The position numbers and the translations under genes are program-made. Below the pieces are notes generated by a model. That model did not search any database. It saw only the letters and a list, made by a program, of their open reading frames with translations, and was not told the origin of the DNA. Of a stretch of 20,000 bases of DNA, positions 1 to 20,000 are shown piece by piece. Every line of letters starts with the position of its first letter. Within the stretch, counting starts at the first letter, position 1. This DNA comes from an uncultured virus (IMG/VR IMGVR_UViG_3300025120_014716) (taxonomy: Duplodnaviria > Heunggongvirae > Uroviricota > Caudoviricetes), in the IMG/VR virus record IMGVR_UViG_3300025120_014716; one strand, given 5' to 3'.

Positions 1-48
1 AATTTTGCTAAATATTTAATAGAGCATCATGATCAAAAAGAAAAGTAA
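1..48 (+). CDS. 3' end of an upstream ORF (partial, ...NFAKYLIEHHDQKEK*)
   Basis: Frame 1 is open from the window start to TAA at 46-48 and abuts the next ATG at 49. Confidence 0.45.
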   Translation, partial: NFAKYLIEHHDQKEK

Positions 49-135
49 ATGGGGTTTATGATATTAATATTTTGTTCCTGGGTTATATTAGAATTAGCCT
101 GGAACTTTTCAAAAGATAAAAAAGATAAAAAATAA
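49..135 (+). CDS. Small putative membrane peptide (28 aa, MGFMILIFCSWVILELAWNFSKDKKDKK)
   Basis: Manually translated. Hydrophobic N-terminus with a basic tail, and it fills the gap between flanking ORFs. Confidence 0.45.
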   Translation: MGFMILIFCSWVILELAWNFSKDKKDKK

Positions 136-138
136 ATT

Positions 139-519
139 ATGAATAATAGTAAATTTATGGAGGAATTTCCTCCTTTGACAAGGAAAGAAGTACATGCTCT
201 TTTAAAAAATAAGGAAGAGTATAACCAATTAGAGGCTATTCCAGGATGGGTTCATAAAGAGGGTATTTTATGTAAGTCAGATGCTGAGATGTCCTTATAC
301 TTTGCAGAAAATGAACTTTCAGAGGTTGAGACTTTTTGTGAGGTTGATAAGAAAATCGAAAGGCTAAGGCACATATTAAGTTTGCCATTTCAATCAAAAA
401 TTGAAGTTGAGATATTGACTGATGAGTTAATTGAGCCAGGAATAAAAATGTTAGCACTGGTTAAAAGAATAGAAGTTTTAAAAGAAATACTTTCAGCATG
501 TCAGAAAAGCAATACATAG
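139..519 (+). CDS. Hypothetical phage protein (126 aa)
   Basis: ORF track; A-rich upstream context (AAATTATG); overlaps the next gene. Confidence 0.75.
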   Translation: MNNSKFMEEFPPLTRKEVHALLKNKEEYNQLEAIPGWVHKEGILCKSDAEMSLYFAENELSEVETFCEVDKKIERLRHILSLPFQSKIEVEILTDELIEPGIKMLALVKRIEVLKEILSACQKSNT

Positions 520-1100
520 GTATTGATCCTGGTAAGTCAGGTCACCTGGTAATAATACAAGGGAGAGAAGTTATCAAATACCCATTTCCTAAAATAGGAA
601 AAGAGTATGACTACAGGGGTATGTTGGATTTGTTCCTGAAACTTGAAGAGAACAACTGTCACATTGTTATTGAAGATGTCAAGGCTCTCCAGGGAAACAT
701 GAAGGCAGGTAACTGGTCCTTAAGTGAGGGTAAAACAATACTTATTATGTGTTGTGTTGCATTAGGCTTGAGACATACCCTGGTACACTCAAAGACATGG
801 CAAAAAGAGGTTTGGCAAGGTGTCCCTCTCCAGAAAAAAGCAGATGGTAAGGGTAAGGATGGTAAGATCAAATATAAAACAGATACAAAGGCAATGACAT
901 TGATTGCAGTTAAAAGGTTATTTCCAGGTGTGGACCTGAGAGTGGACCAGGAGGCTAAATATTATGCAGACTCAGCAACCAACAGAAAAAAAGGAATAGC
1001 AGGCACTGAAATTCCAAGAAAAGGAAATAAACCAGATGATGGAGTTTGTGATGCACTGGCAATGGCATATTATTGTAAACTAAAATTTGGAAAGTCATGA
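498..1100 (+). CDS. ruvC: RuvC-like Holliday junction resolvase (RNase H fold), phage type
   Basis: N-terminal YIGIDPGKSG, central VIED and C-terminal DGVCDALAMA acidic catalytic motifs. Confidence 0.85.
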   Translation: MSEKQYIGIDPGKSGHLVIIQGREVIKYPFPKIGKEYDYRGMLDLFLKLEENNCHIVIEDVKALQGNMKAGNWSLSEGKTILIMCCVALGLRHTLVHSKTWQKEVWQGVPLQKKADGKGKDGKIKYKTDTKAMTLIAVKRLFPGVDLRVDQEAKYYADSATNRKKGIAGTEIPRKGNKPDDGVCDALAMAYYCKLKFGKS

Positions 1101-1363
1101 GTAATGTAAGTAGATTGAATTTAAAAAATGTTATTGATAAACCATTTTTGAAAAAAAGACTGAGGCAAATAATGATCAACTCAGGTAGGCATCAGATGTT
1201 GGAGTCCCTGGACAACAAATCAATTGCCAGGGTTATGTATTTCCTTAAAGGATACCTAAAATGTATTGAGTACCATGGAATACAACCAATTAATACAAGT
1301 GAACTGCAGGATCTCCTGGTAAGGGAGGCATATGATTTCATTGAGGAATATACAACACATTAA
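1097..1363 (+). CDS. Hypothetical protein (88 aa)
   Basis: ATGA overlap with the resolvase gene; ends just before a terminator. Confidence 0.75.
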   Translation: MSNVSRLNLKNVIDKPFLKKRLRQIMINSGRHQMLESLDNKSIARVMYFLKGYLKCIEYHGIQPINTSELQDLLVREAYDFIEEYTTH

Positions 1364-1367
1364 AAAC

Positions 1368-1397
1368 AAAAGGGAACCTTAAACAGTTCCCTTTTTT
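1368..1397. terminator. Bidirectional intrinsic terminator
   Basis: AAAAGGGAAC(1368-1377)-loop-GTTCCCTTTT(1386-1395) hairpin flanked by A and T tracts, between convergent ORFs. Confidence 0.85.
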
Positions 1398-1411
1398 ATT
1401 TGTGTATTCTA

Positions 1412-1906
1412 TTACTTTCCAAGGTTTGCATCCTTAAACTCCTTTAATTTAGCATCCTTTATTTCTTTTACTTCATGAGATTTAGTGTTGGCTCTTGCAG
1501 CAAAGTGATTTTTTATTCTCTCTCTGCCATCAGCAGTCCCTGTGTTAAACTTTCCAATGGTATTTGTACCAAAACCTCTATCTCTTTTTATAGGGACCAG
1601 GAGAGCCTTATTTTCTAAATTTATAAGAGGTTTTTTCCATTTGTCCAGGTAAATAGTTTCAGATCCTTCAAATTTTGTAGAATACTGAGATACAAAAAAT
1701 TCCTTTCCAGTCTCAGGACATTTGAAGTTATTAGAAGATGTTTTTTTGTCATCCACATCCTCTGTTTTATAAAAAGCAGCACCACATGCAACACAACATT
1801 TTTCTTGGTGGAACCTGGTAGGAGGCTTACAGGTTAAAAACTTTGAGGTTATAACCTTATATTCACTACATAGGTCATTCATACACACACTTTGATTCTT
1901 TTCCAT
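1412..1906 (-). CDS. Hypothetical Cys-rich (possible zinc-ribbon) protein (164 aa)
   Basis: Long minus-strand ORF with CMNDLC, CCVACG and CPETG; ends at the bidirectional terminator. Confidence 0.75.
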   Translation of the reverse strand: MEKNQSVCMNDLCSEYKVITSKFLTCKPPTRFHQEKCCVACGAAFYKTEDVDDKKTSSNNFKCPETGKEFFVSQYSTKFEGSETIYLDKWKKPLINLENKALLVPIKRDRGFGTNTIGKFNTGTADGRERIKNHFAARANTKSHEVKEIKDAKLKEFKDANLGK

Positions 1907-1948
1907 AGTTTTATTAGTTATTTTAATTTGTGTTAAAATGAGGTGATC

Positions 1949-2215
1949 TTATGAACTTGTGTACCATTTCCAGGCAAAGCTAATTGATAGTTTTATATTC
2001 ATTATTTCAAGTTTATCAATTTGACCTTTTACTACTCCTGCCTGGTATCCAATGTTAAGGTTGTTTTTTAAAACCTCAGTAATGTTTTTACCATTTAAGG
2101 TATGAAATTGTAAGTTTCTGTCTCCTGGTATAAACTCAAATGTAATGTAATACTGATCATCTATAAGCAATATGCTATAGCCTTCATCATTTAATAATTT
2201 AATAATTCCCTCCAT
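1949..2215 (-). CDS. Hypothetical protein (88 aa)
   Basis: ORF track; co-oriented with 1412..1906; no competing plus-strand ORF. Confidence 0.6.
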   Translation of the reverse strand: MEGIIKLLNDEGYSILLIDDQYYITFEFIPGDRNLQFHTLNGKNITEVLKNNLNIGYQAGVVKGQIDKLEIMNIKLSISFAWKWYTSS

Positions 2216-2230
2216 ACAAATGTATTTTAT

Positions 2231-2269
2231 ATTTAAGTGGTAAATATACTAATTTACTACTTACATTTG
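2231..2269 (+). promoter_or_regulatory. Conserved promoter/operator motif, copy 1, ending in Bacteroidota -7 element TACATTTG
   Basis: ATTTAA-gtgg-TAAATA-tact-AATTTA-ctac-TTACATTTG; same spacing as the copies at 5510 and 11153. Confidence 0.55.
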
Positions 2270-2381
2270 CAGTAAATAGGTCTATTCTTGATTTGTACTC
2301 CTATGTATTCAGGATCTATATATACATTATAATTAAATAAACATATGTATCTATATAATTATAATTTTATGACTATTTAAT

Positions 2382-2412
2382 TTTGTAGGTTTAAATTTAA
2401 GAGTTAGATTTG
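2382..2412 (+). promoter_or_regulatory. Bacteroidota housekeeping-sigma promoter (-33 TTTG / -7 TAGATTTG)
   Basis: TTTG(2382-2385)-N19-TAGATTTG(2405-2412) matches the Bacteroides/Flavobacterium consensus TTTG-N19-21-TAnnTTTG. Confidence 0.7.
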
Positions 2413-2417
2413 CAACC

Positions 2418-2551
2418 GAAGACAAAGTTTTGAGTACAAATCATTTTAGCAAAAAATAAGAAATTAAAATACAAAGAACCAGGATCAAATACATTTGCAA
2501 AACTGTACTATTAGGTTATCACAAATACTTTGTCTTCTACCCTGGTTCTTT
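2418..2551 (+). ncRNA. Candidate structured 5' leader or ncRNA (long hairpin plus pseudoknot)
   Basis: Two perfect 11-bp inverted repeats in interleaved order (2418-2428/2527-2537 and 2473-2483/2541-2551), starting at the predicted TSS. Confidence 0.4.
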
Positions 2552-2572
2552 TTTAAATTGTAGTAGAAGGCA

Positions 2573-3436
2573 GTGATTAAAGTAGCAGAGAACACTTATA
2601 AATTGGCAAATAGTAACGGAATACTTAAAGAGTATTTGACATATTGCCAGTTGAAGTCCTACAGTAATAGTGGATGCATTAATAAAAGAGATGTAAGTTC
2701 TGCAGCAAAATTCATTAAAAAGGGTGTTTCTACTCTTAGAGATCATTTGACAGTATTGGTAAACCAGGGACTTGTTAGAAGAGGCAAGCATCACTATAGC
2801 CTGGTTTCATATGATACAGCCTGGAGCATGCTTGGTCAGGATCTTTCTCCAAATAAAAACGGTAAGAGAAATGGTAACTTTGCCATATTTAAGTTACCAT
2901 TAAAATACTTAAAAGAAAATATTGAATTTAATGAAATAGAATTGGAAGTAAAGAGGTCTGCAGTTAAGGCAAAAAGTTTTATACTGTGCAATTACAAGTC
3001 ACTTTCCGACATAGAAATAAAAAGGATCAAGTCATGCTCATTAACCGATCTAAGGTCCATCCTGGATGATCTATATGTGGAGCAAATGTCAGTTGAGAAA
3101 GGAGTTAAAAATTGCATTGATAATAAAATTAAAGCCAGGTACAGTAGGGCAAAAGATAAAGAATTTAAGTACACAAAAATAACTCCATTTCCAACTTGTA
3201 GAAGGATAGCCTTAATTTTGGGTTATTCCAACTCAGTAAGGACTGGGAGTTTAATAAGAGAAAGGATTCAAAAGGCAGGGTTTGCCAAGTGGATCTCCAG
3301 GAGGGTGAATTTTTGTAAAACTGTAAGTTTTGAGGGTACAAAGACAGTCAGGGAGTTAGCCTGTAAGTATGGACCTGTAAAGGATAACGGTGCATTTGGT
3401 ACGGTTGAATTAATATCTAAATTTACAGTAAAATGA
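2573..3436 (+). CDS. Basic DNA-binding protein with N-terminal winged HTH; possibly replication-initiator-like or a regulator (287 aa)
   Basis: GTG start. The segment SAAKFIKKGVSTLRDHLTVLVNQGLV resembles a wHTH, and a second HTH-like segment TCRRIALILGYSNSVRTG lies near the C-terminus. Function inferred. Confidence 0.6.
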   Translation: MIKVAENTYKLANSNGILKEYLTYCQLKSYSNSGCINKRDVSSAAKFIKKGVSTLRDHLTVLVNQGLVRRGKHHYSLVSYDTAWSMLGQDLSPNKNGKRNGNFAIFKLPLKYLKENIEFNEIELEVKRSAVKAKSFILCNYKSLSDIEIKRIKSCSLTDLRSILDDLYVEQMSVEKGVKNCIDNKIKARYSRAKDKEFKYTKITPFPTCRRIALILGYSNSVRTGSLIRERIQKAGFAKWISRRVNFCKTVSFEGTKTVRELACKYGPVKDNGAFGTVELISKFTVK

Positions 3437-3879
3437 ATACTGTTTACGTTTACACAGATGGATCTTGTAACTATAAGGATAAAAAAGGTGGCATTGGAAT
3501 ACACATGAGGTACCAGGATCATGAAAAAAACATTTCAAAGGGTTACAGTAATACCACTACAGGTAGAATGGAGTTAAGAGCAGTCCTTACAGCACTTAAA
3601 ACAATAAATAACAAGTCAGTTAAGGTTGAGGTACATTCAGACTCACAGTATGTTGTTAATACAGTCAATACCTGGATGTATTCCTGGGAGAAAGAAAATT
3701 ATTCAGGTAAGAAAAATGTTGACCTTGTAAAGGCTATTATGGCTGAGGTTAAAAAATTCTCACCTGGTAGTGTTATTCTCACCTGGGTAAAGGGTCACAG
3801 TGGGGTCCCTGGTAATGAATTAGCAGACTTATTGGCAAATGAAGGTAGACTATCAGAAAATTTAGAATTATGTCAGTAG
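3433..3879 (+). CDS. rnhA: Ribonuclease HI
   Basis: Canonical motifs YTDGSC, TTxxRMELRA, SDSQYV, KNVDL and WVKGHSGxxGNELADLLA. Confidence 0.95.
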   Translation: MNTVYVYTDGSCNYKDKKGGIGIHMRYQDHEKNISKGYSNTTTGRMELRAVLTALKTINNKSVKVEVHSDSQYVVNTVNTWMYSWEKENYSGKKNVDLVKAIMAEVKKFSPGSVILTWVKGHSGVPGNELADLLANEGRLSENLELCQ

Positions 3880-4109
3880 TACCAGGTAACACAGTCTTGA
3901 TAATTACAAAAATAAATGGAGAGGTTGAGTATGGGGTTTATAAAAATGAAATGTTTTTTATATTTCAGAAAATAATAAGCAAACCATGCAATTGTGTAAC
4001 AGGTCACAACTGTTTAGAGTTACCAGGTGATCAATTAAAAAATTGGTCCCTTCCAGGTAATAGTTATTCTGAAAGTCTTAACTATATTTATTCAGAATAC
4101 TTAATTTAA
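3870..4109 (+). CDS. Hypothetical protein (79 aa)
   Basis: ORF track; tightly packed in the operon. Confidence 0.6.
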   Translation: MSVVPGNTVLIITKINGEVEYGVYKNEMFFIFQKIISKPCNCVTGHNCLELPGDQLKNWSLPGNSYSESLNYIYSEYLI

Positions 4110-4114
4110 TAAAA

Positions 4115-4459: not shown

Positions 4460-4473
4460 ACTAAAATAATCCA

Positions 4474-4967: not shown

Positions 4968-4969
4968 AA

Positions 4970-5360: not shown

Positions 5361-5461
5361 ATAATATTACATAATATAGTTTTAACTGCAAATGCTTAAC
5401 GGTGTATGTTAGTAATGGGAGAGTAACTCAAAAAGTTTCTTGTTTTGTTTGTTTATAGTTT

Positions 5462-5577: not shown

Positions 5578-7029
5578 ATGAGTAAAAGCTATCCAAAGTA
5601 TGTGGACCAGGACAACAAAGAAATGGTTCAAATTTATAATTCATTGGAAGATGGGAGTGAAAGCATCTTATTATTGGGAAAGGCAGGGTCAGGTAAGACA
5701 ACCTTTTTGCAAAATTACATAAAAGATAAGTTTTCAAAAAGCATAGTTACAATTGCACCAACAGGAATTGCTGCATTAAATGCAGGAGGTCAAACCATAC
5801 ATAAGTTTTTTGGATTTTCGTTTGAACCAAAGGTTCCAAATGACAGTGCATCACTTGGAAGGGTTAAGGGTTCAAATGTTGGAGTTATTGAGGGCATGGA
5901 CATCCTGGTAATTGATGAGGTAAGTATGGTAAGGGCAGACTTGCTTGATGCAATAGATTATACAATGAGGTCAATAAGGATCAATGATTCACCATTTGGA
6001 GGTGTTAAGGTATTGATGGTTGGTGATCCTTACCAACTTTCACCAGTGTATAAGTTTGAGGAAAAGAAGGTTTTGTCAAAGCATTATAAGGATCTTAACT
6101 TTTTTGATGCAAAAGTATTCCAGGGTGACATAAAGTGTATAGAGTTAAAAAAAGTTTACAGGCAAAATGACCAGGAGTTTCTGGACATATTAAACAACAT
6201 AAGATTAAATAGGGATGTGTTTAAAAGCGTAACTAAATTAAACAAAACTTGCATACATAGGGAGTTGGAAGGTGCAGCCATTGAACTTGCACCAACAAAC
6301 GCAGTAGCAAAGGAAATTAATTCCAGGCACTTGTATGAACTTACAACAAACGAGTATGATTTTTCAGGATCATTCCAGGGAGAGTTTGATAAAAATTCAC
6401 TTCCAACAGATGAGGTGTTAAAGTTAAAGGTAGGCTCTCAGGTTATGTTTGTTAAAAATGACCAGGAGGAAAGATATGTTAATGGAACTATAGGAATAGT
6501 AAAAGAAATATCCAATGGTATTGATCCATACATTAAGGTCCAGGTCTCAGATGATAAGGAATTGATTAAGGTGGGAAGGCATATGTGGGAGAACTTTCAA
6601 TATAAGTCAGTAAAAGGAAGGGTTGAGAAAAAAATAACAGGATCATTCACTCAAATACCTTTAAAATTAGCCTGGGCAGTTACCATACATAAAAGCCAGG
6701 GTTTGACCTTTGATAAAATGAGGCTAAACATGGGTAAGGGTATGTTTAATGCAGGGCAATTGTATGTGGCATTATCCAGGTGTAAAACATTAGAGGGACT
6801 TTCTATCATTGGAAGGATCAGACCATCAGATGTCAAGTCAGTAGATGTAATAAATGAATTTATTGTAAAGACAAAGAGAGGTGAAATAAACCTGGCTAAG
6901 ATGTCAGAGGAGGAAAGAGTGGTCCAGGAGTTTATTGATGAAACACAGCCATCAGAATGGGCATTAGAAAACGGTGTTATGATTGAGCACTTAGTTGATT
7001 TTTATAAATATATAAATTCAAGATTATGA
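5578..7029 (+). CDS. Pif1/RecD-like superfamily 1B DNA helicase
   Basis: Walker A GKAGSGKT, APTGIAA..GGQTIH, IDEVSM, GDPYQL, VYRQ, AWAVTIHKSQGLT and YVALSR motifs. Confidence 0.93.
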   Translation: MSKSYPKYVDQDNKEMVQIYNSLEDGSESILLLGKAGSGKTTFLQNYIKDKFSKSIVTIAPTGIAALNAGGQTIHKFFGFSFEPKVPNDSASLGRVKGSNVGVIEGMDILVIDEVSMVRADLLDAIDYTMRSIRINDSPFGGVKVLMVGDPYQLSPVYKFEEKKVLSKHYKDLNFFDAKVFQGDIKCIELKKVYRQNDQEFLDILNNIRLNRDVFKSVTKLNKTCIHRELEGAAIELAPTNAVAKEINSRHLYELTTNEYDFSGSFQGEFDKNSLPTDEVLKLKVGSQVMFVKNDQEERYVNGTIGIVKEISNGIDPYIKVQVSDDKELIKVGRHMWENFQYKSVKGRVEKKITGSFTQIPLKLAWAVTIHKSQGLTFDKMRLNMGKGMFNAGQLYVALSRCKTLEGLSIIGRIRPSDVKSVDVINEFIVKTKRGEINLAKMSEEERVVQEFIDETQPSEWALENGVMIEHLVDFYKYINSRL

Positions 7030-7427
7030 TTATTGAGGAAAATGGTATTTTAGCAGTGTCTATTGCATCACTTGTAGGATTATCAATTGGAGTATTTTTG
7101 GTAGAAAGGGAAAGGTACCTGGAGAAAAAATACTATGTGTCAAATTGGAAGGTTGCATACAACCATGAGGGTAGGTCCTTTAAGGATGCACTTTATAGGG
7201 CAGATGTCCATGTACCAGTGCATACTGTTAAAATAGAGTTAACTTATATTTACAATAAGGAAGAGGTTTCTGGAGTGTTTGTAAAAGCCAGAGATACAGG
7301 TTTATGGATGGACCACTATACAGGAGATCCAGTAAGAGCAGATGATGAAAATTTATCAGATATTCTTGATTATATTACTCACAGCAGCAGTGGAGATTTT
7401 AACGGAAACAAGGAATTTAACTTTTAA
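7026..7427 (+). CDS. Hypothetical membrane-anchored protein (133 aa)
   Basis: N-terminal TM segment GILAVSIASLVGLSIGVFLV; ATGA overlap. Confidence 0.7.
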   Translation: MIIEENGILAVSIASLVGLSIGVFLVERERYLEKKYYVSNWKVAYNHEGRSFKDALYRADVHVPVHTVKIELTYIYNKEEVSGVFVKARDTGLWMDHYTGDPVRADDENLSDILDYITHSSSGDFNGNKEFNF

Positions 7428-7439
7428 TAATTTAACTTT

Positions 7440-7946
7440 ATGGTTTTAGAATTAGAAAATTTGGAAAAGACAATATCTGCAATATTGGAGGCAGATCCAG
7501 GTTGTATAAAAAATGATCAGATGCTACACATAGCAGTATGGGCAGAGCAAAATAATTCTCTGACAGATGAAGGTAGGTTGTCAATTGACTTTATAAGAGA
7601 TTATACAGGTGGTTTTTATGTTAGTACTGAGGTAATTAATAAAGTTAAAAAAAGACTTGTAAGCAAGGGAAGGCTAAAAGAGAACAGTCACTTTCATGGT
7701 CATACATATGATAAGAATAGAGATCATGTGAGGTTAACTAAAAAGATAAAAGAGTTGTATGATTTGATGAAGGATGGCACCTGGAGAACAGTTGCTGAGA
7801 TCCATGAAATATTGGGTCATAAACATTCAACAATAGATGCAAACCTTAGAAATTTGAGAAGGGAGGACAAAGGCTATCACCAGACTCCAGGTAGAAAAAG
7901 GAATGGAATAGGTGACTTTGAATACAAATTAATTCCAAATGAGTGA
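7440..7946 (+). CDS. Phage protein with C-terminal HTH (168 aa)
   Basis: WRTVAEIHEILGHKHSTIDANLRNLRR is HTH-like. Confidence 0.7.
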   Translation: MVLELENLEKTISAILEADPGCIKNDQMLHIAVWAEQNNSLTDEGRLSIDFIRDYTGGFYVSTEVINKVKKRLVSKGRLKENSHFHGHTYDKNRDHVRLTKKIKELYDLMKDGTWRTVAEIHEILGHKHSTIDANLRNLRREDKGYHQTPGRKRNGIGDFEYKLIPNE

Positions 7947-8025
7947 GACAGAGAAGAGAGTGATGAACAGGTGTATATATTTATTAATCCTGGTTGCCAT
8001 GATCGTAAGACTGAGTATAGTTTAA
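7939..8025 (+). CDS. Small putative membrane peptide (28 aa)
   Basis: Manually translated (MSETEKRVMNRCIYLLILVAMIVRLSIV); fills the intergenic gap. Confidence 0.45.
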   Translation: MSETEKRVMNRCIYLLILVAMIVRLSIV

Positions 8026-8035: not shown

Positions 8036-8626
8036 ATGAAATTTTTGAGAAAGACAAAATACTATGATGGAATAGTATTTGAGTGGAATTTACCAAGTGG
8101 ATCTTCATGTCCATCAGCATTAGAGTGTTTGGTAAAAGTGGACAGGAAAACAGGAAAGTTCAACAACAAAAGTAAGGCATACAGGTGCTATTCAGCTATG
8201 CAGGAGAGGTTCCCTGCAGTAAGAGAGCACAGGTGGAAAAACTTTGACTACCTGAGAGCAGGTGGTATTCCAGAAATACCTGCAAAGGCAAAACACATAA
8301 GGATCCATATGAGTGGAGATTTTTATTCCCAGGATTATTTTGACATGTGGTTAAAATTGTGTGCAGAGCATCCAGATGTGGAGTTTTGGGCATATACTAA
8401 AAGTCTTAACTATTGGATAAAAAGCATAAACAATGTACCAGATAATTTGACAATTACAGCAAGTAAGGGAGGAAAGCATGATCACCTTATTGATGAACAT
8501 AACCTTAAGTATGTTGAAATAATAAAAAAACCTGAACAGGCAAAAGGTAGACCAATTGATGAAAAGGACAGAGAGGCAAGAAAGCCAGATGTAAACTTTT
8601 GCTTATTAGATAATTTTGCAAAATAA
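8036..8626 (+). CDS. GP88-family (radical-SAM-related) phage protein
   Basis: NLPSGxSCP..C...CY, RIHMSGDFYS and FWAYTKS motifs typical of the GP88 family. Confidence 0.8.
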   Translation: MKFLRKTKYYDGIVFEWNLPSGSSCPSALECLVKVDRKTGKFNNKSKAYRCYSAMQERFPAVREHRWKNFDYLRAGGIPEIPAKAKHIRIHMSGDFYSQDYFDMWLKLCAEHPDVEFWAYTKSLNYWIKSINNVPDNLTITASKGGKHDHLIDEHNLKYVEIIKKPEQAKGRPIDEKDREARKPDVNFCLLDNFAK

Positions 8627-9003: not shown

Positions 9004-9180
9004 ATGTCAAGGTTAAAGGAGTTAATGCAAGAGAGAGAAACTATAAAAAAAGAATTGTCAAAGGCTACAGATGCATCAAATGATGCAATGAGGCACTGGA
9101 AAGATAGTTGTAAGTCAGTCTCTGAGATCCAGGATAAATTGATGAAAATAAATTCAATGATAACAATAGAGAAAATATGA
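9004..9180 (+). CDS. Small coiled-coil protein (58 aa)
   Basis: Manually translated (MSRLKELMQERETIKKELSK...ITIEKI); ATGA overlap with 9177. Confidence 0.65.
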   Translation: MSRLKELMQERETIKKELSKATDASNDAMRHWKDSCKSVSEIQDKLMKINSMITIEKI

Positions 9181-9773
9181 CATACTTAAACCACAAAAAC
9201 CACATACTATCTTTTACAAATGTATTCACTGCAAAGGAGTGCAAAAAGGTGGTTGAATTTATAAAAAAAAATATTGACAAATTTGAAAAGTCAAACCAGG
9301 GAGAAAGAAGTCCAACAACCTCAAACCAACTACACATAACTAATTTGTATAAAGAATTACAATTTGATGAGATAGACCAAATTATATATGATGGACTGGC
9401 AAAGGTTACAGGTAATGCAGTAAGTAAAGGACAGAGGTTTCCATGTGATAGGTTATCAGATACTGGTTACATACTGAGAGAGGTAACAGGACCAACAGCA
9501 ATGCATTCAGATGGAATTGCTATGGAGTACAGCAGTAAAACAAAACTATCAAGTTATAGAGTGGCAAGTCTAATAGTGTCCCTGGAGGATACAGGTGATA
9601 AATTGTCCTTTCCTGAGTATAACCTGGACATACCTTTAAGAGAGGGAACGGTTGTATTTTTCCCTCCATTTTGGACCCATAGACATGGTACTGAGTGGTC
9701 AGGTAAAAAAGGGTACAGAATACAAACCTGGTTAAAAAATTCATTTGGTGAATCTGTTTTAAATGAAGGGTGA
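9177..9773 (+). CDS. 2OG-Fe(II) oxygenase (prolyl-4-hydroxylase-like)
   Basis: N-terminal NVFTAKEC, HxD (MHSDG), FPPFWTHRHG distal His and a downstream basic residue. Confidence 0.85.
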   Translation: MTYLNHKNHILSFTNVFTAKECKKVVEFIKKNIDKFEKSNQGERSPTTSNQLHITNLYKELQFDEIDQIIYDGLAKVTGNAVSKGQRFPCDRLSDTGYILREVTGPTAMHSDGIAMEYSSKTKLSSYRVASLIVSLEDTGDKLSFPEYNLDIPLREGTVVFFPPFWTHRHGTEWSGKKGYRIQTWLKNSFGESVLNEG

Positions 9774-12389: not shown

Positions 12390-12562
12390 TAAGTTTGCTT
12401 AAAGATCCTCAGAATGTTGTTGAGGAGGAAAGAGATTATATCCTGGAGGTAATTGATAAAATTTATTTGAAGGGTAAAAATAAAAAAACTAATTTAGACA
12501 ATGCAGAGTTAGAACCTGGTGAGGGTGGCTCTGCATTTCATATAATAGAAAAACATTATTAA
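12386..12562 (+). CDS. Hypothetical protein (58 aa; start revised from 12308)
   Basis: ATGA overlap at 12386-12389 gives MISLLKDPQ... Confidence 0.6.
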   Translation: MISLLKDPQNVVEEERDYILEVIDKIYLKGKNKKTNLDNAELEPGEGGSAFHIIEKHY

Positions 12563-12565
12563 TGT

Positions 12566-12829
12566 ATGTCAGAAATATTTGATGCTATCCTGGATAGGTA
12601 TGAGGACCTTGAGGGTCATGAAACTCTTAAGGCAGATGGTCTTGATGATGCCATAATTGGAATAGATGACAATAGCATGAGGTTGATCTACTCAGTGACT
12701 TTAATTTTTAAGATCTTAACAGAAAATGATGAAATGACTCAGGAGGATGCCATGGATCATTTTAATTACAATATTGCAGGTGCCTATGTGGGTCCATATA
12801 CTCCTATATGGTGCTATGATTATTTTTGA
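12566..12829 (+). CDS. Conserved small acidic phage protein (87 aa)
   Basis: ADGLDDAIIG...LIYS...EDAMDHFNYNIAGAYVG..TP, a pattern I recognise from uncharacterised phage proteins. Confidence 0.8.
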   Translation: MSEIFDAILDRYEDLEGHETLKADGLDDAIIGIDDNSMRLIYSVTLIFKILTENDEMTQEDAMDHFNYNIAGAYVGPYTPIWCYDYF

Positions 12830-13137: not shown

Positions 13138-13634
13138 GTGAAAATATCCTACGGTCTACTGCACAGCCTATCAGATGGTCAAATAAAATATCTTAAGAGG
13201 GCATGCTTTAATGCACTAACTGTTTCAGATGTAGGGTCCAGACTTATTGCTAAACAGATGTTAATGGACCTGGGGATCATTCAAAGAGATCACAGAGGTT
13301 CAACTATAGCCATCCAAAAGGTACTTATTGAGTTAAGGAGAATCTCACCAGATCCAGAAATGGTAAAAAAGGAATACAAAAAGCCAGTACCAACTTACAT
13401 GCTTATAGTTGTAGATGTCCTGGATGTGGTTCCATTTCCAGTCAAATCACCACTGCACAAATACCAGGAACATTTCCAGTCAAATCACCACTGCACAAAT
13501 ACCAGGAATTTTTTTACAGGCTTGGCAAAATGTCTTTCCAGGTAGAGAAGGGTAATTCACTTTATGAGGACATCATAGAGGAGATCCAGTTTAATCCTCA
13601 CTTGAATTTAATATATGAGAAACCTATTTGGTAA
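13138..13634 (+). pseudogene. Hypothetical gene frameshifted by a 38-bp tandem duplication (135 aa as read, 152 aa if repaired)
   Basis: Removing one repeat copy extends the frame (...HKYQE-FFYRLGKMSF...YEKPIW*) to TAA at 13632-13634. Confidence 0.7.
13433..13508 (+). repeat. Exact 38-bp tandem direct repeat (2 copies)
   Basis: CATTTCCAGTCAAATCACCACTGCACAAATACCAGGAA at 13433-13470 and 13471-13508. Confidence 0.97.
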
Positions 13635-13991: not shown

Positions 13992-13993
13992 AG

Positions 13994-15640
13994 ATGACCA
14001 GTAGTCAAATTGATAACTTGGCACAATTTGAACTGGAAAAGAGAAAACTGGACATTCAAAAGGGGTTGGTTGTTAAATCCTGGATGGAATCAAATGATCC
14101 AGATCAGATCTTAAAGGCTCAAATGTACCTTGAGGATGTAGAAAACAGAAAAGCATCAGGTGTTAAGTCTGTTATCTTTGATCCAAATAACAGATACCAG
14201 GGAGATGGGTATAAGAACAAACTTGTACCTCTGACCTATGCTACATTGAGAGCAATGGCAAAGACTCCTATTATCTCAGCCATAATAAAAACAAGGGTTG
14301 AGCAAATATCAGAGTTTACAACTCCACAGACAAGCAAGTTTCAACCAGGGTTTGTAATTAGAAAAAAAAGAACAAACTACTTTTCAGATAAGGTTGAAAA
14401 AATGTCTAAGGAGGATGACAAGGCTATCAATGACATGACAGAATCCATATTGAATTGTGGATCTGACTATAATGCATGGCATGGAGATTCACTTGACTCA
14501 CTGACCAGAAAATTTATTCCTGATTGCCTGGCATTGGACCAGGGTACATTTGAGATAATCAGAAACAGAAAAGGGATACCAATAGAAATGATGGCAGTTG
14601 ATGGTGCAACCGTAAGGGTAGCAGACTCAATTGATGATGATGAGTACAGAGGGTCAAGAAAGCAAATAAACGGTTACTATCCATCCTATGTTCAGGTCCT
14701 GGACCAAAACATAAAAACGGAATATTATCCATGGGAGTTATGTTTTGGTGTAAGGAATCCAAGTTCAAACATTCACAATAATGGGTATGGTAACTCAGAG
14801 TTGGAAGAGTTAATGAATGTTGTAACCTGGATGTTAAACAGTGACTCTTATAATGGTAAGTTTTTTAGCCAGGGGTCATCTCCAAAAGGAATCTTAAAAG
14901 TATCAGGAAATGTTAATGCAGCCAGGCTAAAAGAATTTAGACAGGAATGGCATTCAACAACAACTTCAGTAGCTAATGCTCATAAGGTGCCAATTATTGA
15001 TGGTGAAAATGTTGACTTCATAAACCTGCAGAGTAGTAACAGAGACATGGAATTTAGCCAATGGCAGGAATACCTTATTAAGGTGTCATGTGCTCTTTAT
15101 AAAATAGATCCAACAGAGATCTTTGACTTTGTTAATTCAAAGCCAGGATTAAGTGGAGAGAATACAGAGGAAAAGGTTAAGTACTCAAGAGACAAAGGAT
15201 TAAAACCTTTGTTGAGATCTTATCAAACCTGGTTAAATAAATATTGGGTCAATCCAAGGAATCCAGAGTTAGAGTTGGTATTTGTAGGATTAGATACAGA
15301 CAGTGAACAAAAAGAGTTAGAGTTGGACATCAAAAGAGGTCAATCTTTCATGGGACTTAATGAATTAAGAGAGAAACATGAACTTGGAAAACTTTCAGAT
15401 GATGACATGTTGTTAAATCCAGTATGGATCCAGATGAAACAAATGGAGTCTATGGAGAATGAGATGTCAGATTCTGCAGTAGGAGAGTTTGAGGGAGGTG
15501 ATCAAGAGGAGGATCCTATAGCAGCAAGAGAGGCTGAGTTAACTCAGTATGAAAAGTCTCAAGATGCAAATCCTTTTATTGAAGAGTTAAATAAATTCAC
15601 ACAAAGGGAGTTGGGTGCAGAGACTAAAATTAACATTTAA
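13994..15640 (+). CDS. Phage portal protein (SPO1/Twort-like large-myovirus type)
   Basis: 548 aa with AVDGATVR, GYGNSELE, YNGKFFSQGSSPKGIL, RDMEFSQWQEYLI..CALYKIDPTEI, GLKPLL and LNELR motifs. Confidence 0.92.
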   Translation: MTSSQIDNLAQFELEKRKLDIQKGLVVKSWMESNDPDQILKAQMYLEDVENRKASGVKSVIFDPNNRYQGDGYKNKLVPLTYATLRAMAKTPIISAIIKTRVEQISEFTTPQTSKFQPGFVIRKKRTNYFSDKVEKMSKEDDKAINDMTESILNCGSDYNAWHGDSLDSLTRKFIPDCLALDQGTFEIIRNRKGIPIEMMAVDGATVRVADSIDDDEYRGSRKQINGYYPSYVQVLDQNIKTEYYPWELCFGVRNPSSNIHNNGYGNSELEELMNVVTWMLNSDSYNGKFFSQGSSPKGILKVSGNVNAARLKEFRQEWHSTTTSVANAHKVPIIDGENVDFINLQSSNRDMEFSQWQEYLIKVSCALYKIDPTEIFDFVNSKPGLSGENTEEKVKYSRDKGLKPLLRSYQTWLNKYWVNPRNPELELVFVGLDTDSEQKELELDIKRGQSFMGLNELREKHELGKLSDDDMLLNPVWIQMKQMESMENEMSDSAVGEFEGGDQEEDPIAAREAELTQYEKSQDANPFIEELNKFTQRELGAETKINI

Positions 15641-15645
15641 CCAAA

Positions 15646-15987
15646 ATGAGCACTGGACAAAATAATTTGCAAAATGGTTGGGGTGAGTATAGCCATCTTG
15701 TATTGACTAAGTTGGATGATCTACAAAAGGAGCAAAGGGAAATAAGAAAGTCCCTGGATACCGTACACTCAAGACTCACAAAACTTGAGAGTAATCAGGA
15801 AAAAATAAAGGACCTATCTTCCTGGAAAAATATGGTAAATGATGTTTGGAGTCCTGCCCAAATGAAAGAGGGTAAGGATGAAATTTATAAGCAAAAAGAG
15901 AGATGGACAGGTGCAACCTGGTTGTTTATAGCTGCACAGGTAATGTGGGCATTAATTATGGCATTTAAGGATAAGATATTCAATTAA
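15646..15987 (+). CDS. Coiled-coil protein with C-terminal TM helix (holin/XhlA-like architecture)
   Basis: Heptad-like LTKLDDLQKEQREIRKSLDTVHSRLTKLE and TM WLFIAAQVMWALIMAF. Confidence 0.6.
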   Translation: MSTGQNNLQNGWGEYSHLVLTKLDDLQKEQREIRKSLDTVHSRLTKLESNQEKIKDLSSWKNMVNDVWSPAQMKEGKDEIYKQKERWTGATWLFIAAQVMWALIMAFKDKIFN

Positions 15988-15989
15988 GA

Positions 15990-16382
15990 ATGTGTGAGAA
16001 GATTGATAGGATAAGAGAGTTGACTCATGAGATCTCTAAGCAAATGTGCTTAGTTGACAGGCTAACCTCAGCACTTGACTCATCCAGTGAGGGCATAGCC
16101 ATATTGGACAGGGATGGAAAGTTTGTCTGGTTAAATAGAGTTCATGAGGAAATGTACAAGTACGGTCCAGGTGAACTAACAGGAAAGTCTTGGGAGATCC
16201 TTTATGATGATGATCAGATCCAGGACATTAAGAATGAGGTTAGTTTGATAATTAACAAAGAGGGAAGTTGGCATGGTAAAAAGGTTGGTTTGTGTAAAGA
16301 TGGATCTTACATAAAAGAAAGGCTATACCTTACAGGTTTGAAAGGTGGTGGTATGGTTTGCACATGTATAAAAATTGATTAA
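15990..16382 (+). CDS. Stand-alone PAS-domain protein
   Basis: ALDSSSEGIAILDRDGKFVWLN...MYKY..GELTGKSW...GSWHG....KDGS is a PAS/PAC signature; no output domain. Confidence 0.85.
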   Translation: MCEKIDRIRELTHEISKQMCLVDRLTSALDSSSEGIAILDRDGKFVWLNRVHEEMYKYGPGELTGKSWEILYDDDQIQDIKNEVSLIINKEGSWHGKKVGLCKDGSYIKERLYLTGLKGGGMVCTCIKID

Positions 16383-16829
16383 TTGGCAGATGAAAAGCAT
16401 ATAACAGGAGCCATAAAAACATTAATGTTTTTAGGTAAGTTCGTTGGAATGATGGTTGCATTATGTACAGCCATGTGGTTTTTTGGGGAGCCATTCCTGG
16501 AGGATTATGTTGAGAGCCATTTTGAGGAGTATGACAGCAAAAAAGAGGCTGAGTATAAGCATAAGGAAAGTCAAAGGATTAGTTTTAGATCACTACTTTC
16601 AGATAAGATGTCAGTTGATAATGATGAGGTCCACATAGAACTTGGAAGGCTATACAAGTCAGAGAAAATTGAAAGAAAGGCTATGTACAATTACATTGAC
16701 TCTATTTATAAAAAATTAAAAAAGCAAATTGATGCAGATTATTCTCACAGTGCCAGGATGAGAAAGATAATAAAGAAAGAAATAAAACTTTGGAATCCAA
16801 AGTCAAAAATAATGCTTAAAAATAATTAA
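16383..16829 (+). CDS. Membrane-anchored helical protein (148 aa)
   Basis: TTG start (alternative ATG at MFLGK); TM segment FVGMMVALCTAMWFF followed by a charged helical region. Confidence 0.7.
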   Translation: MADEKHITGAIKTLMFLGKFVGMMVALCTAMWFFGEPFLEDYVESHFEEYDSKKEAEYKHKESQRISFRSLLSDKMSVDNDEVHIELGRLYKSEKIERKAMYNYIDSIYKKLKKQIDADYSHSARMRKIIKKEIKLWNPKSKIMLKNN

Positions 16830-16830
16830 A

Positions 16831-18420
16831 ATGGACAATAGTAATTTATCACTTGGATTTGAAGACTTCAAAGGTTCTGAAATTGCCAAATCATTCCAAG
16901 ATGAAATTGAAAAGGCAGAGGGTTTCAAACCACATATAATGTATGATCCTAAAACAGGTAAGGGTTATAAGGCTGAAAAAAAGCAGGATCATGAAAGGAT
17001 GTCCAAATTGGGGTATGTACATGAAAAACCAAGTATTGATGAAATTGAAAAAGCTAAAAAACTGGGACCTTTGGGACCTGGTAATTGGGTTACTATTGAT
17101 GGTAGGCATGTGTACCTTGATGGTAAAGGTAATGTAAAGGCAGGTAAGGTCTATGGTAAGGATGGAGACAATGTTAAAACTGTTAGTTCATCAGGATCAA
17201 ATAGTTCTGGAGGGTCCAAAGAGGGAGGATCTGGTGCAAGTGGAATGAGCGACAAAGAACTTAACTCAGCAATAAAAGAGGCAAAGTCAGCAAATGATAA
17301 AGCATCCTTTGCAGATGGATCTAAGAATAAAACAGTAGCTGACTTAAAAAAGTTAACTAATGAAAAGAAGTCCAGGACAGCATCCAAAAAAGAGGCTAAA
17401 TCAAAAGAGACTAAAGAAAAAAAGAAGGTAGATATTGCAGCAATGAATGAGAAGATGGCTGCCATGATCCAGGCATCAGGTGTCAAAGATGTTAGTATGA
17501 AAGCAGATGATGTTTCATTTGGTAAAAATACAGATGTCATTATTGATGTGAATGGTAAGAATAAGGACATGGCAGGAATGCAGATCATATTTGATGGTGA
17601 TAAGTATGAAGTTAGTGAATACCAGGCAGGTCCAAAAGGAGAAGACATGCTGATCTTTGGAGACCACAAAACTCTGGGTTCTGCAGTAAAGCAAGCATTG
17701 AAGGGTAACTATACAGATGGAGGTCAAAAACCACAAAAGGTATTAGATGGTAGTGATGGACCAGGAACTGATCTATACAAACCATTTGATAAGTATAAGA
17801 AGGAGCAGGATGCAAAAAAGTCTGGAGGTAAGAAGGATGAAAAGATGCCTATTAATCCAAAGGATTGGAAAGATGAACCAGGTAGCAGCAAACCTTCAAA
17901 AAAGAAAGAAACTCCAAAAGATGTGATCACTGAGGGAGGTGCAAATCCACAGGACTATAAAGGTGGCAAGCATCAAAGTGATCCAGGCTATAAGTCACAG
18001 TCAAAGGCTGATCAAAAAAATATTGATACACTTGCATCCACTAAGACTGTAGACTGGAATAAAACAGATCCAGATCTTAAGGCACAGTTTGATGAAGATA
18101 TGGACTATGTGAGAGAGAACCTTAACGATATGTCAGACAAGCAAATAAATGAGGCTCTTGAAGGTGATGACAAGGATAAGGCTGAACTGGCAAAAGAGGT
18201 TGTTAAGTTAAAGAAAATAAAGGATCCATTGGACCAGGCAATTGCCTTTTCCTCATCCAGTATGGCAGGTAATTATGAGTACCTTGAAGAGTCAAAAGTT
18301 GCACTTTTAGCTACAGTTGCACAAATTAAAAAAGATACTCCAGAGGCATTCAAAACATTTAATCCAAAACAAACAAGGTTATTCAAATCAATTATTATCA
18401 AAGCGTTAAACAGAATATAA
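16831..18420 (+). CDS. Modular Lys/Gly-rich protein with conserved leader; putative internal head (cargo) protein 1
   Basis: Leader NLSLGFEDFKGSEIAKSF; two DEIEKA sites; short modules (FKPHIMYDPKTG..., WVTIDGRHVYL) separated by low-complexity linkers. Confidence 0.75.
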   Translation: MDNSNLSLGFEDFKGSEIAKSFQDEIEKAEGFKPHIMYDPKTGKGYKAEKKQDHERMSKLGYVHEKPSIDEIEKAKKLGPLGPGNWVTIDGRHVYLDGKGNVKAGKVYGKDGDNVKTVSSSGSNSSGGSKEGGSGASGMSDKELNSAIKEAKSANDKASFADGSKNKTVADLKKLTNEKKSRTASKKEAKSKETKEKKKVDIAAMNEKMAAMIQASGVKDVSMKADDVSFGKNTDVIIDVNGKNKDMAGMQIIFDGDKYEVSEYQAGPKGEDMLIFGDHKTLGSAVKQALKGNYTDGGQKPQKVLDGSDGPGTDLYKPFDKYKKEQDAKKSGGKKDEKMPINPKDWKDEPGSSKPSKKKETPKDVITEGGANPQDYKGGKHQSDPGYKSQSKADQKNIDTLASTKTVDWNKTDPDLKAQFDEDMDYVRENLNDMSDKQINEALEGDDKDKAELAKEVVKLKKIKDPLDQAIAFSSSSMAGNYEYLEESKVALLATVAQIKKDTPEAFKTFNPKQTRLFKSIIIKALNRI

Positions 18421-18421
18421 A

Positions 18422-19321
18422 ATGGAAAACTTAGGACTAAATTTAGAAGACTTTGAAGGATCAGGAATTGAGAAAGGTTTTATTGGTGATATTTCAAAAG
18501 GTAAAAAAGTTCCAGTTGGAACAGTAACCAATGGTTACAAAAAAATGGGGGAAGGAAAATGGGTCCCTGTTAAGAAAGACAAAAAGAGTAAGTCTTCACC
18601 AGTTGTTAAAGAGGGTAAATACCAAAAAACTTGGCAAACACAAAAATATGTAAAGGCAGGTAATATTGAGTTGGTAGGTGATAAGCATTCCAGTCCATCC
18701 AAGCAAGTATATAAAATTAATAAAGACAAAGAGCAGGTTGGGTCATTTAGTTATGATAAGGACTCTGGATCTTATAATTTATTAGATGGTACTAAACAGT
18801 CATTTCAAAATATTGATGAGTTAGTAAAATTTTCAAAAGAGAACCTTACTTCAACAAATCCAAATCAAGAGGAGGATACTTATTTCTCTGATGGTGCAGA
18901 CAGACAGCCAATAAGAAAGGTCCAGGTAGGAAAATTTCTATTAGATGGGTCTAAGAGTGACATCAAAGTTGGTGTTTATGATGGTGAAAATCAAGTTGGT
19001 GAAGTTTACTTTGATGAGGATGACAATGGTTTTTGGACAAGTGGCAGTGGTAGTAATATTTTACTTAAAAAAGAGGGTGGTCAAACCTGGTATCCTTCTA
19101 TACAAAAAATTGTTGATACTCTTAAAGATAATCAGGGTTCATCAAACACTGGTAAGGATGTTGCAGAAAGAATGAAAAGTTCTAAGTGGGGAGGTCAAAG
19201 TACTTTTCCTACAAGTGTAATTGAAAAGGTTTCCAAGATGGACAATGTTACCAGAGAGGACCTTGAGAAAGTAGTTCCAGATTATATTGCAGGATCAGAG
19301 TTAACAAAAGTTTTAAAGTGA
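18422..19321 (+). CDS. Modular protein with conserved leader; putative internal head (cargo) protein 2
   Basis: Leader NLGLNLEDFEGSGIEKGF; VPVGTVxNGYKKMxEGKWVPVK module shared with the next ORF. Confidence 0.75.
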   Translation: MENLGLNLEDFEGSGIEKGFIGDISKGKKVPVGTVTNGYKKMGEGKWVPVKKDKKSKSSPVVKEGKYQKTWQTQKYVKAGNIELVGDKHSSPSKQVYKINKDKEQVGSFSYDKDSGSYNLLDGTKQSFQNIDELVKFSKENLTSTNPNQEEDTYFSDGADRQPIRKVQVGKFLLDGSKSDIKVGVYDGENQVGEVYFDEDDNGFWTSGSGSNILLKKEGGQTWYPSIQKIVDTLKDNQGSSNTGKDVAERMKSSKWGGQSTFPTSVIEKVSKMDNVTREDLEKVVPDYIAGSELTKVLK

Positions 19322-19327
19322 TAAATT

Positions 19328-20000
19328 ATGGATAGTTTAAGTTTGAATATAGAAGACTTCAAGGGATCAGGAATTGACAAAGGGTTTGTCAATAACAACC
19401 TGGAAAAGGGTAAGGCAGTACCTGTAGGAACTGTTTCAAATGGTTATAAGAAAATGGCTGAGGGTAAGTGGGTCCCTGTTAAAGAAGGAGGATCTGGTTA
19501 TAAAGAAAACAAACCAAGTGGCTATACAGATAACATGGCAAATAAGGAAGGTAAGATGCAAGCAGCCAAAGATGCAATGCCAAAGCCAACTGAAGATGAC
19601 AAAGCGTACTTTAAGGAAAACAAAGAGGCTATAATGGCTATCATTGAAAATGATCCATTTGTATCTGTAAAGGAGGTTATTGATGATCATAGAAAGGATA
19701 ATAAAGAGTCAAAGATTAAGCAGGCAGGTAAGGCAATTAAAAAAATGGCAAATAGGTTTACTGAGGATATTAAGGACATCCTTGGTGCATCAGATCCATC
19801 CTATATGCCAAAAGGTCCAGATGTATCCAAAGGTGAAGTAAACCTTGGATTAAATACAGATCACTTCAAAGGTTCTCCAGTTGAAAAGGGTCTCCAGGGA
19901 CTTGACAAAAGCCTATGGGCAAACATAAGGGCAAACAGGGGATCAGGTAAGCAACCAACTCCTGAGATGTTGGAGCAAGAAAGAAAGATCAAGGCAAGCG
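19328..20000 (+). CDS. Modular protein with conserved leader; putative internal head (cargo) protein 3 (partial, runs off the window)
   Basis: Missing from the ORF track. Manually translated as MDSLSLNIEDFKGSGIDKGFVNNNLEKGKAVPVGTVSNGYKKMAEGKWVPVK..., open to position 20000. Confidence 0.85.
   Translation, partial: MDSLSLNIEDFKGSGIDKGFVNNNLEKGKAVPVGTVSNGYKKMAEGKWVPVKEGGSGYKENKPSGYTDNMANKEGKMQAAKDAMPKPTEDDKAYFKENKEAIMAIIENDPFVSVKEVIDDHRKDNKESKIKQAGKAIKKMANRFTEDIKDILGASDPSYMPKGPDVSKGEVNLGLNTDHFKGSPVEKGLQGLDKSLWANIRANRGSGKQPTPEMLEQERKIKAS

Follow-up and report, generated by a model that had tools for sequence, protein, structure and literature searches.

The pattern reported here is closest in kind to the highly iterated palindromes (HIPs) of cyanobacteria, HIP1 (GCGATCGC) and the alternate HIPs, for which the question of whether biased repair or selection multiplies the word is three decades old. 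In E. coli, very-short-patch (Dcm/Vsr) repair is said to shape oligonucleotide frequencies, a view that reportedly goes back to Bhagwat and McClelland and to Merkl et al., both in 1992. Here we describe a massive surplus of CCWGG (CCAGG and CCTGG) in a stretch of 20,000 nucleotides from an uncultured tailed virus (IMG/VR record IMGVR_UViG_3300025120_014716), the whole of which we call the window, and in a near-identical, longer virus record, G001. For HIP1, a methylation-dependent biased mismatch repair has been proposed (Elhai 2015, PMC4390886) and selection has been argued by Xu et al. (2018, PMC5861425).

The exact count in the window is 127 CCWGG (72 CCAGG and 55 CCTGG), about one per 157 b, with 36 of them in the first 4.1 kb. 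The DNA has 34.9% G+C and a strong strand skew (A 37%, T 28%, G 22%, C 13%), from which a mononucleotide model expects 10.7 sites, so that CCWGG stands at about 12 times the base-composition expectation; Markov models of order 1, 2 and 3 raise the expected number to 25.6, 44.3 and 81.7, respectively. Even at order 3, no other 5-mer is as over-represented as CCTGG (z 5.9) and CCAGG (z 5.6). A preliminary description, made by eye, had put the total at about 127, the share of the first 4.1 kb at about 36 and the mononucleotide expectation at about 10, and the position list and the computation agree with it on each figure. It had also noticed no CTAG, and indeed there is none, either in the window or in the 69 kb of G001. 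GGCC, CCGG, GCGC, CGCG and CCSGG are equally at zero in the window, while GGWCC (44) and GATC (115), which had been described as frequent, are both in surplus, to a smaller extent than CCWGG.

G001 is a linear record of 69,120 b, estimated to be 67% complete, with 371 CCWGG. It contains 100% of the sampled words of the window, which corresponds to the reverse strand of its positions ~2006-21967 and differs from it at 8 substituted bases, besides 2 positions read as N in G001, and in one 38-b indel. An exact search with 43 bases and a search with the portal protein alone had no match among viral contigs, and blastn of 7 kb gave none among phage records.

Codon-aware nulls were computed on 33 open reading frames (ORFs) of the window, which hold 119 of its 127 sites, and on 77 ORFs of G001, which hold 357 sites. 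Model A permutes the synonymous codons within each gene, keeping protein and codon usage; Model B adds a bar on any rise of CG, CTAG, GGCC and AGCT; Model C makes synonymous swaps that hold every dinucleotide count as well; and Model D is Model A with 23 non-redundant purged words, CG included, barred from rising, so that it ends stricter than the real genome. Against the 119 sites observed in the window, Model A expects 39.1 +- 3.7 (z 21.5), Model B 48.6 +- 3.8 (z 18.5) and Model C 75.8 +- 4.2 (z 10.3, with a maximum of 85 in 150 runs). In G001 the 357 sites compare with 122.0 +- 6.9 under Model A (2.93x), 160.7 +- 7.2 under Model D (2.22x), 212.8 +- 7.0 under Model C (1.68x) and 223.6 +- 7.1 when Model C is combined with a ban on 11 word strings, both strands listed (1.60x). 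Model C is over-conservative, because CCWGG alone supplies about a quarter of the CC dinucleotides of the window (127 of 492). In a scan of all words of G001 under this same model, CCWGG is the top 5-mer with a z of 23.8, the runner-up reaching 8.7. The absence of CTAG also withstands correction, as the window has 0 against an expected 28.4 (Model A) or 18.3 (Model C). Loss of the enrichment after codon and dinucleotide correction had been set beforehand as a test of the preliminary description; the surplus persists, under word bans as well, and is real, strong, genome-wide and lineage-specific.

The surplus reaches all reading frames and the DNA between genes. Genic sites of the window are distributed as 20 CCW GGN (Pro-Gly), 34 xCC WGG and 65 xxC CWG Gxx, and the six sites in the minus-strand ORFs at 1412-2215 make the surplus independent of the coding strand, in line with the earlier remark that the sites lie in all frames and on both coding strands. 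In the intergenic DNA of G001 we counted 14 CCWGG in 3,809 b, where shuffles that preserve the dinucleotides give 1.77 +- 1.25 (maximum 5 among 200), an enrichment of about 8-fold, some of the gaps counted containing ORFs under 60 aa. The sites and genes of the window to which we refer are the following.

1 to 20,000, no strand: the complete set of 127 CCWGG from the exact position list; no CTAG, GGCC, CCGG, GCGC, CGCG or CCSGG.
77 to 102, no strand: two CCWGG (77 and 98) in the intergenic leader 5' of the first ORF, equivalent to G001 segment 21830-22081 (2 sites).
1412 to 2215, minus strand: two ORFs with six CCWGG (1597, 1645, 1814, 1970, 2041 and 2124).
2479 to 2545, no strand: two CCWGG in the divergent intergenic region 2216-2572, equivalent to G001 19396-19752 (2 sites).
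5578 to 7029, plus strand: Dda/PIF1-like helicase gene, with 13 of 23 possible synonymous CCWGG positions realised; G001 14939-16390.
7989 to 7993, no strand: a single CCWGG in the short gap separating ORFs 7440-7946 and 8036-8626.
12442 to 12593, no strand: three CCWGG within 12390-12746, uncalled in the gene set, where there are two overlapping ORFs of 84-87 aa.
13994 to 15640, plus strand: portal gene, with 11 of 29 possible CCWGG positions realised; G001 6366-8012; the query used to find relatives.

Among the positions able to spell CCWGG synonymously, 119 of 272 do so in the window and 357 of 948 in G001, a realised share of 0.38-0.44. The odds of realisation per possible position are about 4-5 times those of the null, which is the size of a weak per-site force. 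Its codon cost is visible in G001, where 93 of the 199 CTG Leu codons and 97 of the 384 CAG Gln codons sit inside CCWGG. Furthermore, the proteins themselves are affected: the Pro-Gly dipeptide has an observed/expected ratio of 1.58 in G001 versus 0.48-1.00 in nine relatives, which is about a doubling, and all 73 Pro-Gly pairs of G001 are written CCWGG, a sole spelling that results from the near absence of CCC and CCG codons. For the ancestral states of these pairs orthologue cover was sparse, extending to 33 pairs, 31 of them through one distant relative. The pressure on CCWGG overrides codon preference and shifts dipeptide content.

The complete word is what is favoured. Outside the full site, CCAG/CTGG is found 345 times in G001 against 322.4 under Model A (1.07x) and CAGG/CCTG is at 1.09x, while the longer look-alikes CCWWGG and GGWWCC are at 0.7-0.8x and about 1.0x. 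A longer motif was considered and rejected, since there is no flank consensus and the flanks merely lean towards A/T. The realised sites are placed nearly at random among the possible positions: the coefficient of variation (CV) of the spacing is 0.917 versus 0.982 in simulations, 7% of which are as low, the largest gap is 976 versus 1227, and no period of 10-11 b or 21 b appears in pair distances up to 300 b. Gene-to-gene variation in the realised share is borderline (chi-square p 0.05). A tail-fibre-like gene (G001 63585-65372, 595 aa) fills no more than 4 of its 34 possible positions (binomial p 0.0008, uncorrected for about 60 genes). Its G+C is the highest (0.41) and, with 8 CpG, so is its CpG count per kb, and it looks like a recent import whose conversion to the word usage of the genome is ongoing. 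A directional, DNA-level pressure thus favours the complete word CCWGG, uniformly over the genome.

This accumulation takes place in a genome from which many other words have been erased. CpG falls to 0.08 of its expected frequency in the window and to 0.074 in G001; the leftover CpG clusters in ACCGT/ACGGT (51 vs 22.7) and AACGG words (39 vs 22.0). All the palindromes that are missing from the window are at zero throughout G001 too, including CTAG (65-104 expected by the codon-aware nulls) and GGCC (35-42 expected), and so are GAATTC, GATATC, GTATAC, CAGCTG and AAGCTT. Erased non-palindromes are GAAGC (0 vs 45-69), AGCTC (0 vs 41-61), CCAGC (0 vs 40-44) and AGCCC (0 vs 23), and GAAGAA (4 vs 34-58) and CAGAAG (4 vs 34-44) are heavily depleted, which suggests an avoidance of Type IIS/III-like targets. 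The purge is the pattern of an unmodified lytic phage facing many restriction systems. The preliminary description had linked the depletion of CTAG to Vsr, a link that falls away since CTAG is one of many erased words (CpG, GGCC, CCGG, GAAGC and others) and its loss as part of this wider purge needs no Vsr. Only three palindromes are in surplus in G001, namely CCWGG, GGWCC (128 vs 59-92) and GATC (321 vs 232-250); TGCA, CATG and GTAC are at expectation (1.0x). Among other words, AGGCTA/TAGCCT is in surplus in the genes of G001 (50 vs 23.4 under Model C, or vs 38.6 with bans) and is strand-biased (coding strand: 37 AGGCTA, 13 TAGCCT).

The DNA is part of a large tailed phage. Products of the window comprise a portal protein (PF04860), the Dda/PIF1-like helicase, an RNase H, a RuvC-like resolvase, a GP88-family protein, a 2OG-Fe(II)-oxygenase-like protein and a PAS-domain protein; G001 adds a terminase, DnaB, a primase, a DnaE-type polymerase with a separate exonuclease, RecA, SbcCD, a ThyA-like protein, and tail and baseplate genes, most proteins of the phage belonging to no known family. 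The best named relatives by portal protein are Chryseobacterium phage MA9V-3 (44.5% identity) and Bacteroides phages (40%), followed by SPO1-like phages of Firmicutes (35-38%), and we infer a Bacteroidota host from these relatives alone. The phage was found in runs labelled marine or seawater metagenome: one run of 2017 (X1), perhaps its source, holds 0.98 of its words, and two runs of a different study of 2021 (X2 and X3) hold 0.94 and 0.80; three further runs (X4-X6), with small shares of the sequence, were left out when judging the habitat. X1-X3 contain contigs of 50-66 kb, and long contig pieces in the marine runs differ little from the phage sequence. The phage recurs at 99% identity in marine samples four years apart. 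Among the 40 differences listed, out of 1097 on the contigs of X2-X5, inspection by eye placed none in a CCWGG, where about 1 was expected.

Some of the variation between copies can be located. The 38-b indel polymorphism lies at 13433-13470 of the window, inside ORF 13138-13545, and the deletion variant loses one CCWGG; this stretch is missing from G001 and from the contigs of X2 and X3, and X4 has a shifted version. At 16831-19999 there are three successive ORFs with alike N-termini (M-x-N/S-L-x-L-N-x-E-D-F-x-G-S...), and contigs of X2 and X4 link 18443 to 19350, omitting 906 b, so that a variant without the middle paralogue circulates. The small PAS-domain protein (130 aa, 15990-16382) is encoded amid head genes, shortly past the portal gene.

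The surplus is specific to this lineage. The nearest relatives for which we have DNA are L083 (62% portal identity) and L087 (60%), an 88% portal relative (P0001) being known as protein only. L087, of the same base composition and with CpG at 0.12, has 19 CCWGG against 18.3 expected, and 57 CTAG; it realises 19 of 260 possible positions and L083 realises 7 of 100, each 7%, and in MA9V-3 and two IMG/VR relatives the share is 3-4%. No low-GC locus among 80 viral and 25 metagenome loci shows a CCWGG surplus, and a gut group of loci avoids the word (0-15 sites, mostly 5 or fewer, vs 8-16 expected). In this gut group CCWGG, GGWCC and CTAG are all near zero. GATC is bimodal among the relatives, being absent from L010, L020, L023, L024, L079, L085, L092, L094 and others, and present at about 5 per kb in MA9V-3. 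Portal Pro-Gly counts are small everywhere (2 in the window, 4 in P0001 and 1-2 in the others).

Cellular genomes were scored for comparison. In 20 unpicked Bacteroidota genomes CCWGG is at 0.77x Model A (range 0.34-1.17), and the realised share has a median of 0.10 and does not exceed 0.20. In seven genomes chosen because they are rich in CCWGG pairs, the word is at 1.5-2.4x Model A and 1.25-1.45x Model C, and 0.15-0.30 of the possible positions are realised.

CCWGG-rich Bacteroidota genomes: G189, G174, G297, G102, G090, G240 and G117 (loci L137, L138, L142, L143 and L153-L155), 41-45% G+C.

The phage (2.9-3.0x, 0.38-0.44 realised) lies beyond every cellular sample scored, in the same direction as this CCWGG-rich minority. 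A look-up of the host by RecA gave a best match of 61% on a 107-kb contig of a Bacteroidota metagenome-assembled genome without a CCWGG surplus, and a DNA search of five CCWGG-rich genomes returned one 29-b A/T-rich chance match, outside any repeat array.

The phage DNA seems to encode no enzyme that would account for the surplus. In six frames of G001, 69 kb or about 67% of the genome, there is no match for PF00145 (C5-methylase), PF03852 (Vsr), PF01555 (N4/N6-methylase) or PF02086 (Dam-type), and scans of the ORFs against Pfam, PHROGs and NCBIfam found no base-modifying or T:G-repair enzyme, including TET/JBP, DpdA/Que and active dNMP hydroxymethylase genes. No C5-methylase was found in any of four relatives (MA9V-3 and three from IMG/VR). 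By synteny with MA9V-3, whose genome is complete, the unseen third of the genome would consist mostly of head and tail genes. The interpretation in the preliminary description is partly supported: the surplus survives codon correction, the 69 kb available contain no phage-encoded Dcm/Vsr-type pair, and either a host-encoded drive of that type or selection for dense sites may be the cause.

Two candidate modifying enzymes were set aside: the 2OG-Fe(II)-oxygenase-like ORF 9177-9773, which has weak matches to 2OG-FeII_Oxy_3 (E 0.015) and PHROG 61 and none to TET_JBP, and a 403-aa protein beside the ThyA-like gene, which looks gp32-like. The ThyA-like protein itself (351 aa, G001 29075-30130, minus strand) has, when aligned to solved thymidylate synthases, a Ser at the position of the catalytic Cys and Asn-Tyr-x-Ile in place of the Arg-Ser-x-Asp phosphate-binding stretch, retains the Asn of FNIASY and carries an insert of about 40 residues; it may be inactive or repurposed. 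MA9V-3 (L001 45868-48854) has folE and queE, of the 7-deazaguanine pathway, between recA and dnaE; at the matching place G001 carries SbcD, the ThyA-like gene and the gp32-like gene, with neither folE nor queE.

What could drive the surplus? The explanation that we tentatively prefer is a host-borne, methylation-linked push on CCWGG, exerted either by a T:G repair bias or by selection for methylated sites. CCWGG would be gained and kept at the DNA level, on top of the sweeping purge of restriction-type words. A Dcm-like cytosine methylase of the host would target CCWGG, so that the word would never be restricted. Then either a Vsr-kind, site-specific correction of T:G to C:G would act on the heavily recombining, replicating phage DNA, or weak selection would favour more methylated sites. 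Either route would drive CCWGG to about 40% of the spellable positions, bending codon choice and Pro-Gly content, and the smaller surpluses of GATC and GGWCC would arise in the same way. Selection and T:G-to-C:G conversion yield the same equilibrium composition, so neighbour-word counts do not separate them.

We favour a process supplied by the host because the phage seems to encode no such enzyme, because the enriched trio are classic orphan-methylase words for which methylation is reported in marine viral genomes, and because recombination-heavy replication would expose mismatches to a T:G nuclease without competition from strand-directed repair. With RecA, SbcCD, a RuvC-like resolvase and a Dda-like helicase in the phage, heteroduplex DNA should indeed be common. 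Two studies of marine viral genomes report methylation at CCWGG, GGWCC and GATC (Hiraoka et al. 2022, PMC8919816; Seong et al. 2022, PMC9516812), and the second finds a methylase encoded by only 14 of 83 methylated viral genomes. In our sample of Bacteroidota, 103 of 401 genomes have Vsr genes, and in these the ratio of CCWGG to GGWCC pairs is slightly higher than in the rest (median log2 1.79 vs 1.44, p 0.004, with no phylogenetic control).

Several observations weigh against this explanation. The relaxed signature of an E. coli-type Vsr is missing: apart from CCAG/CTGG, hardly raised outside the site, CTTGG+CCAAG is at 104 vs 112.6 under Model A (0.92x, z -0.9) and 104 vs 129 under Model C (z -3.2), with a z of -3.6 under another dinucleotide-preserving null, a depletion that is weak or absent. 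A Vsr drive leaves the surplus of GATC unexplained. Neither a methylase nor Vsr was found in the 69 kb of G001, and three of five CCWGG-rich Bacteroidota genomes checked have neither C5-methylase nor Vsr, so that a milder CCWGG surplus can arise without that pair. Finally, phages of Dcm+/Vsr+ E. coli are not, to our knowledge, known for a CCWGG surplus, and we know of no general protection by plain methyl groups that scales with the density of sites.

A stronger version of the idea is possible, although we hold it to be doubtful: that a directional force on a single methylase-type palindrome, be it a strong T:G repair drive or the use of CCWGG as a self-mark, has reshaped the lineage and even its protein sequences. 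If so, the T:G drive would affect recombining phage DNA far more strongly than the chromosome of the host, or the self-mark would separate phage from host DNA; the phage would be the first phage counterpart of the cyanobacterial HIPs and a natural system for separating repair bias from selection.

Methylation need not be involved if selection maintains CCWGG as a word that a protein of the phage or host binds or recognises, for instance in genome compaction, in packaging or in self-marking against a phage nuclease that destroys host DNA. This would resemble the structural role proposed for HIP1, for which Xu et al. favour selection over repair bias (PMC5861425), and it agrees with a surplus that is palindromic, whole-word, DNA-level and both coding and intergenic, with the failure to find modification genes in the 69 kb of G001, with a spacing slightly more even than random (CV 0.917 vs 0.982) and with the lack of a known family for most phage proteins. 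However, no candidate reader protein was identified, a 5-bp word offers little binding specificity, the evenness is not significant and comes with no helical or other short period, and the rise of GATC and GGWCC, also classic methylase words, is left unexplained; we consider this rather unlikely. Still less probable, in our view, is that the unseen third of the genome encodes a CCWGG cytosine methylase or a hypermodifying enzyme, with or without a T:G repair nuclease, and that dense protective sites were selected. G001 is indeed a linear, incomplete fragment, three classic methylase words are enriched, and marine myovirus-like genomes are reported to average 2.2 methylase genes, with m4C at CCWGG and GGWCC (PMC8919816). 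But the missing part would mostly hold head and tail genes, judging from MA9V-3, none of the four relatives has a C5-methylase, and a genome purged of about 23 word families behaves like unmodified DNA.

Could CCWGG instead be a by-product, the word bans and the skewed composition funnelling the remaining C and G into safe words? That every one of the 73 Pro-Gly pairs is spelled CCWGG, with CCC and CCG almost unused, fits such a funnel, and forbidding the purged words lifts the expectation from 122 to 161. But the strict 23-word ban stops at 160.7 +- 7.2 and fixed dinucleotides at 212.8-223.6, against 357; the intergenic DNA is enriched about 8-fold; L087, of the same composition and with a CpG purge of 0.12, has no surplus (19 vs 18.3); and Pro-Gly itself is doubled. 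Models C and D together with the intergenic surplus largely refute this account, which we regard as very improbable. A codon-pair or translation effect, in which C-ending codons would be preferred before CAG or CTG and then G, deserves next to no credence. It draws on the 65 of 119 genic window sites in the frame xxC CWG Gxx, but CCWGG is also enriched in the other two frames and, being a palindrome, on both strands, relatives of similar codon usage lack the surplus, and the roughly 8-fold enrichment between genes refutes it.

How does the phage compare with the described systems? It shares with the HIPs a short palindrome that is many-fold over-represented genome-wide, in genes and between them, and the same debate between biased repair and selection. 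HIPs are tied in the literature to orphan methylases, whereas the phage has no cognate methylase in its 69 kb (about 67%). They belong to cells and HIP1 has 8 bp, whereas here a phage carries a 5-bp Dcm/EcoRII word at about 5 per kb; periods of 10-90 kb are reported for HIP1, beyond the reach of 69 kb, whereas we see no periodicity at 300 b or less; and the surplus in the phage coexists with an extreme purge of other palindromes. The phage is not a HIP member in the strict sense.

The likeness to the Dcm/Vsr pattern of E. coli is one of sign only, CCWGG being up and CTAG down. The effect in the phage is far larger (2.2-2.9x after codon correction), CCAG/CTGG is not raised outside the full site, CTAG is one of many erased words, and there is no Dcm or Vsr gene in the 69 kb of phage DNA examined. 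Nor does the phage resemble a hypermodification system, as our scans of its 69 kb found no base-modification genes and its ThyA-like protein has Ser for the catalytic Cys. Restriction-site avoidance, as treated by Rusinov et al. (2018, PMC6286503), is seen for CTAG, GGCC, CCGG, GCGC, CGCG, CCSGG, GAATTC, GATATC and AAGCTT, but its sign is reversed for CCWGG, GGWCC and GATC, which accumulate. The marine viral methylomes of Hiraoka et al. (2022, PMC8919816) and Seong et al. (2022, PMC9516812) come from the same habitat and feature the same three words; what they describe is methylation and not over-representation, whereas the finding in our phage is one of word frequency. The literature searched, in which subscription journals are thinly covered, yielded no description of a phage with a CCWGG surplus.

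Phages are expected to lose restriction-type palindromes, and here an extreme purge goes together with one such word filling about 40% of its possible positions. If a repair bias is responsible, the DNA repair of a host can write a strong signature into a virus, with a bearing on host prediction by word usage and on models of phage genome evolution; if selection is, a dense array of CCWGG has some use as a mark, a shield or a binding word. As the phage recurs at 99% identity in marine samples four years apart, population data to separate the two causes should exist. Set beside the HIPs, the Dcm/Vsr pattern and restriction-site avoidance, this phage is of interest because the expected sign is reversed, because the pressure extends to protein sequence and because existing marine population data offer a chance of testing repair bias against selection.

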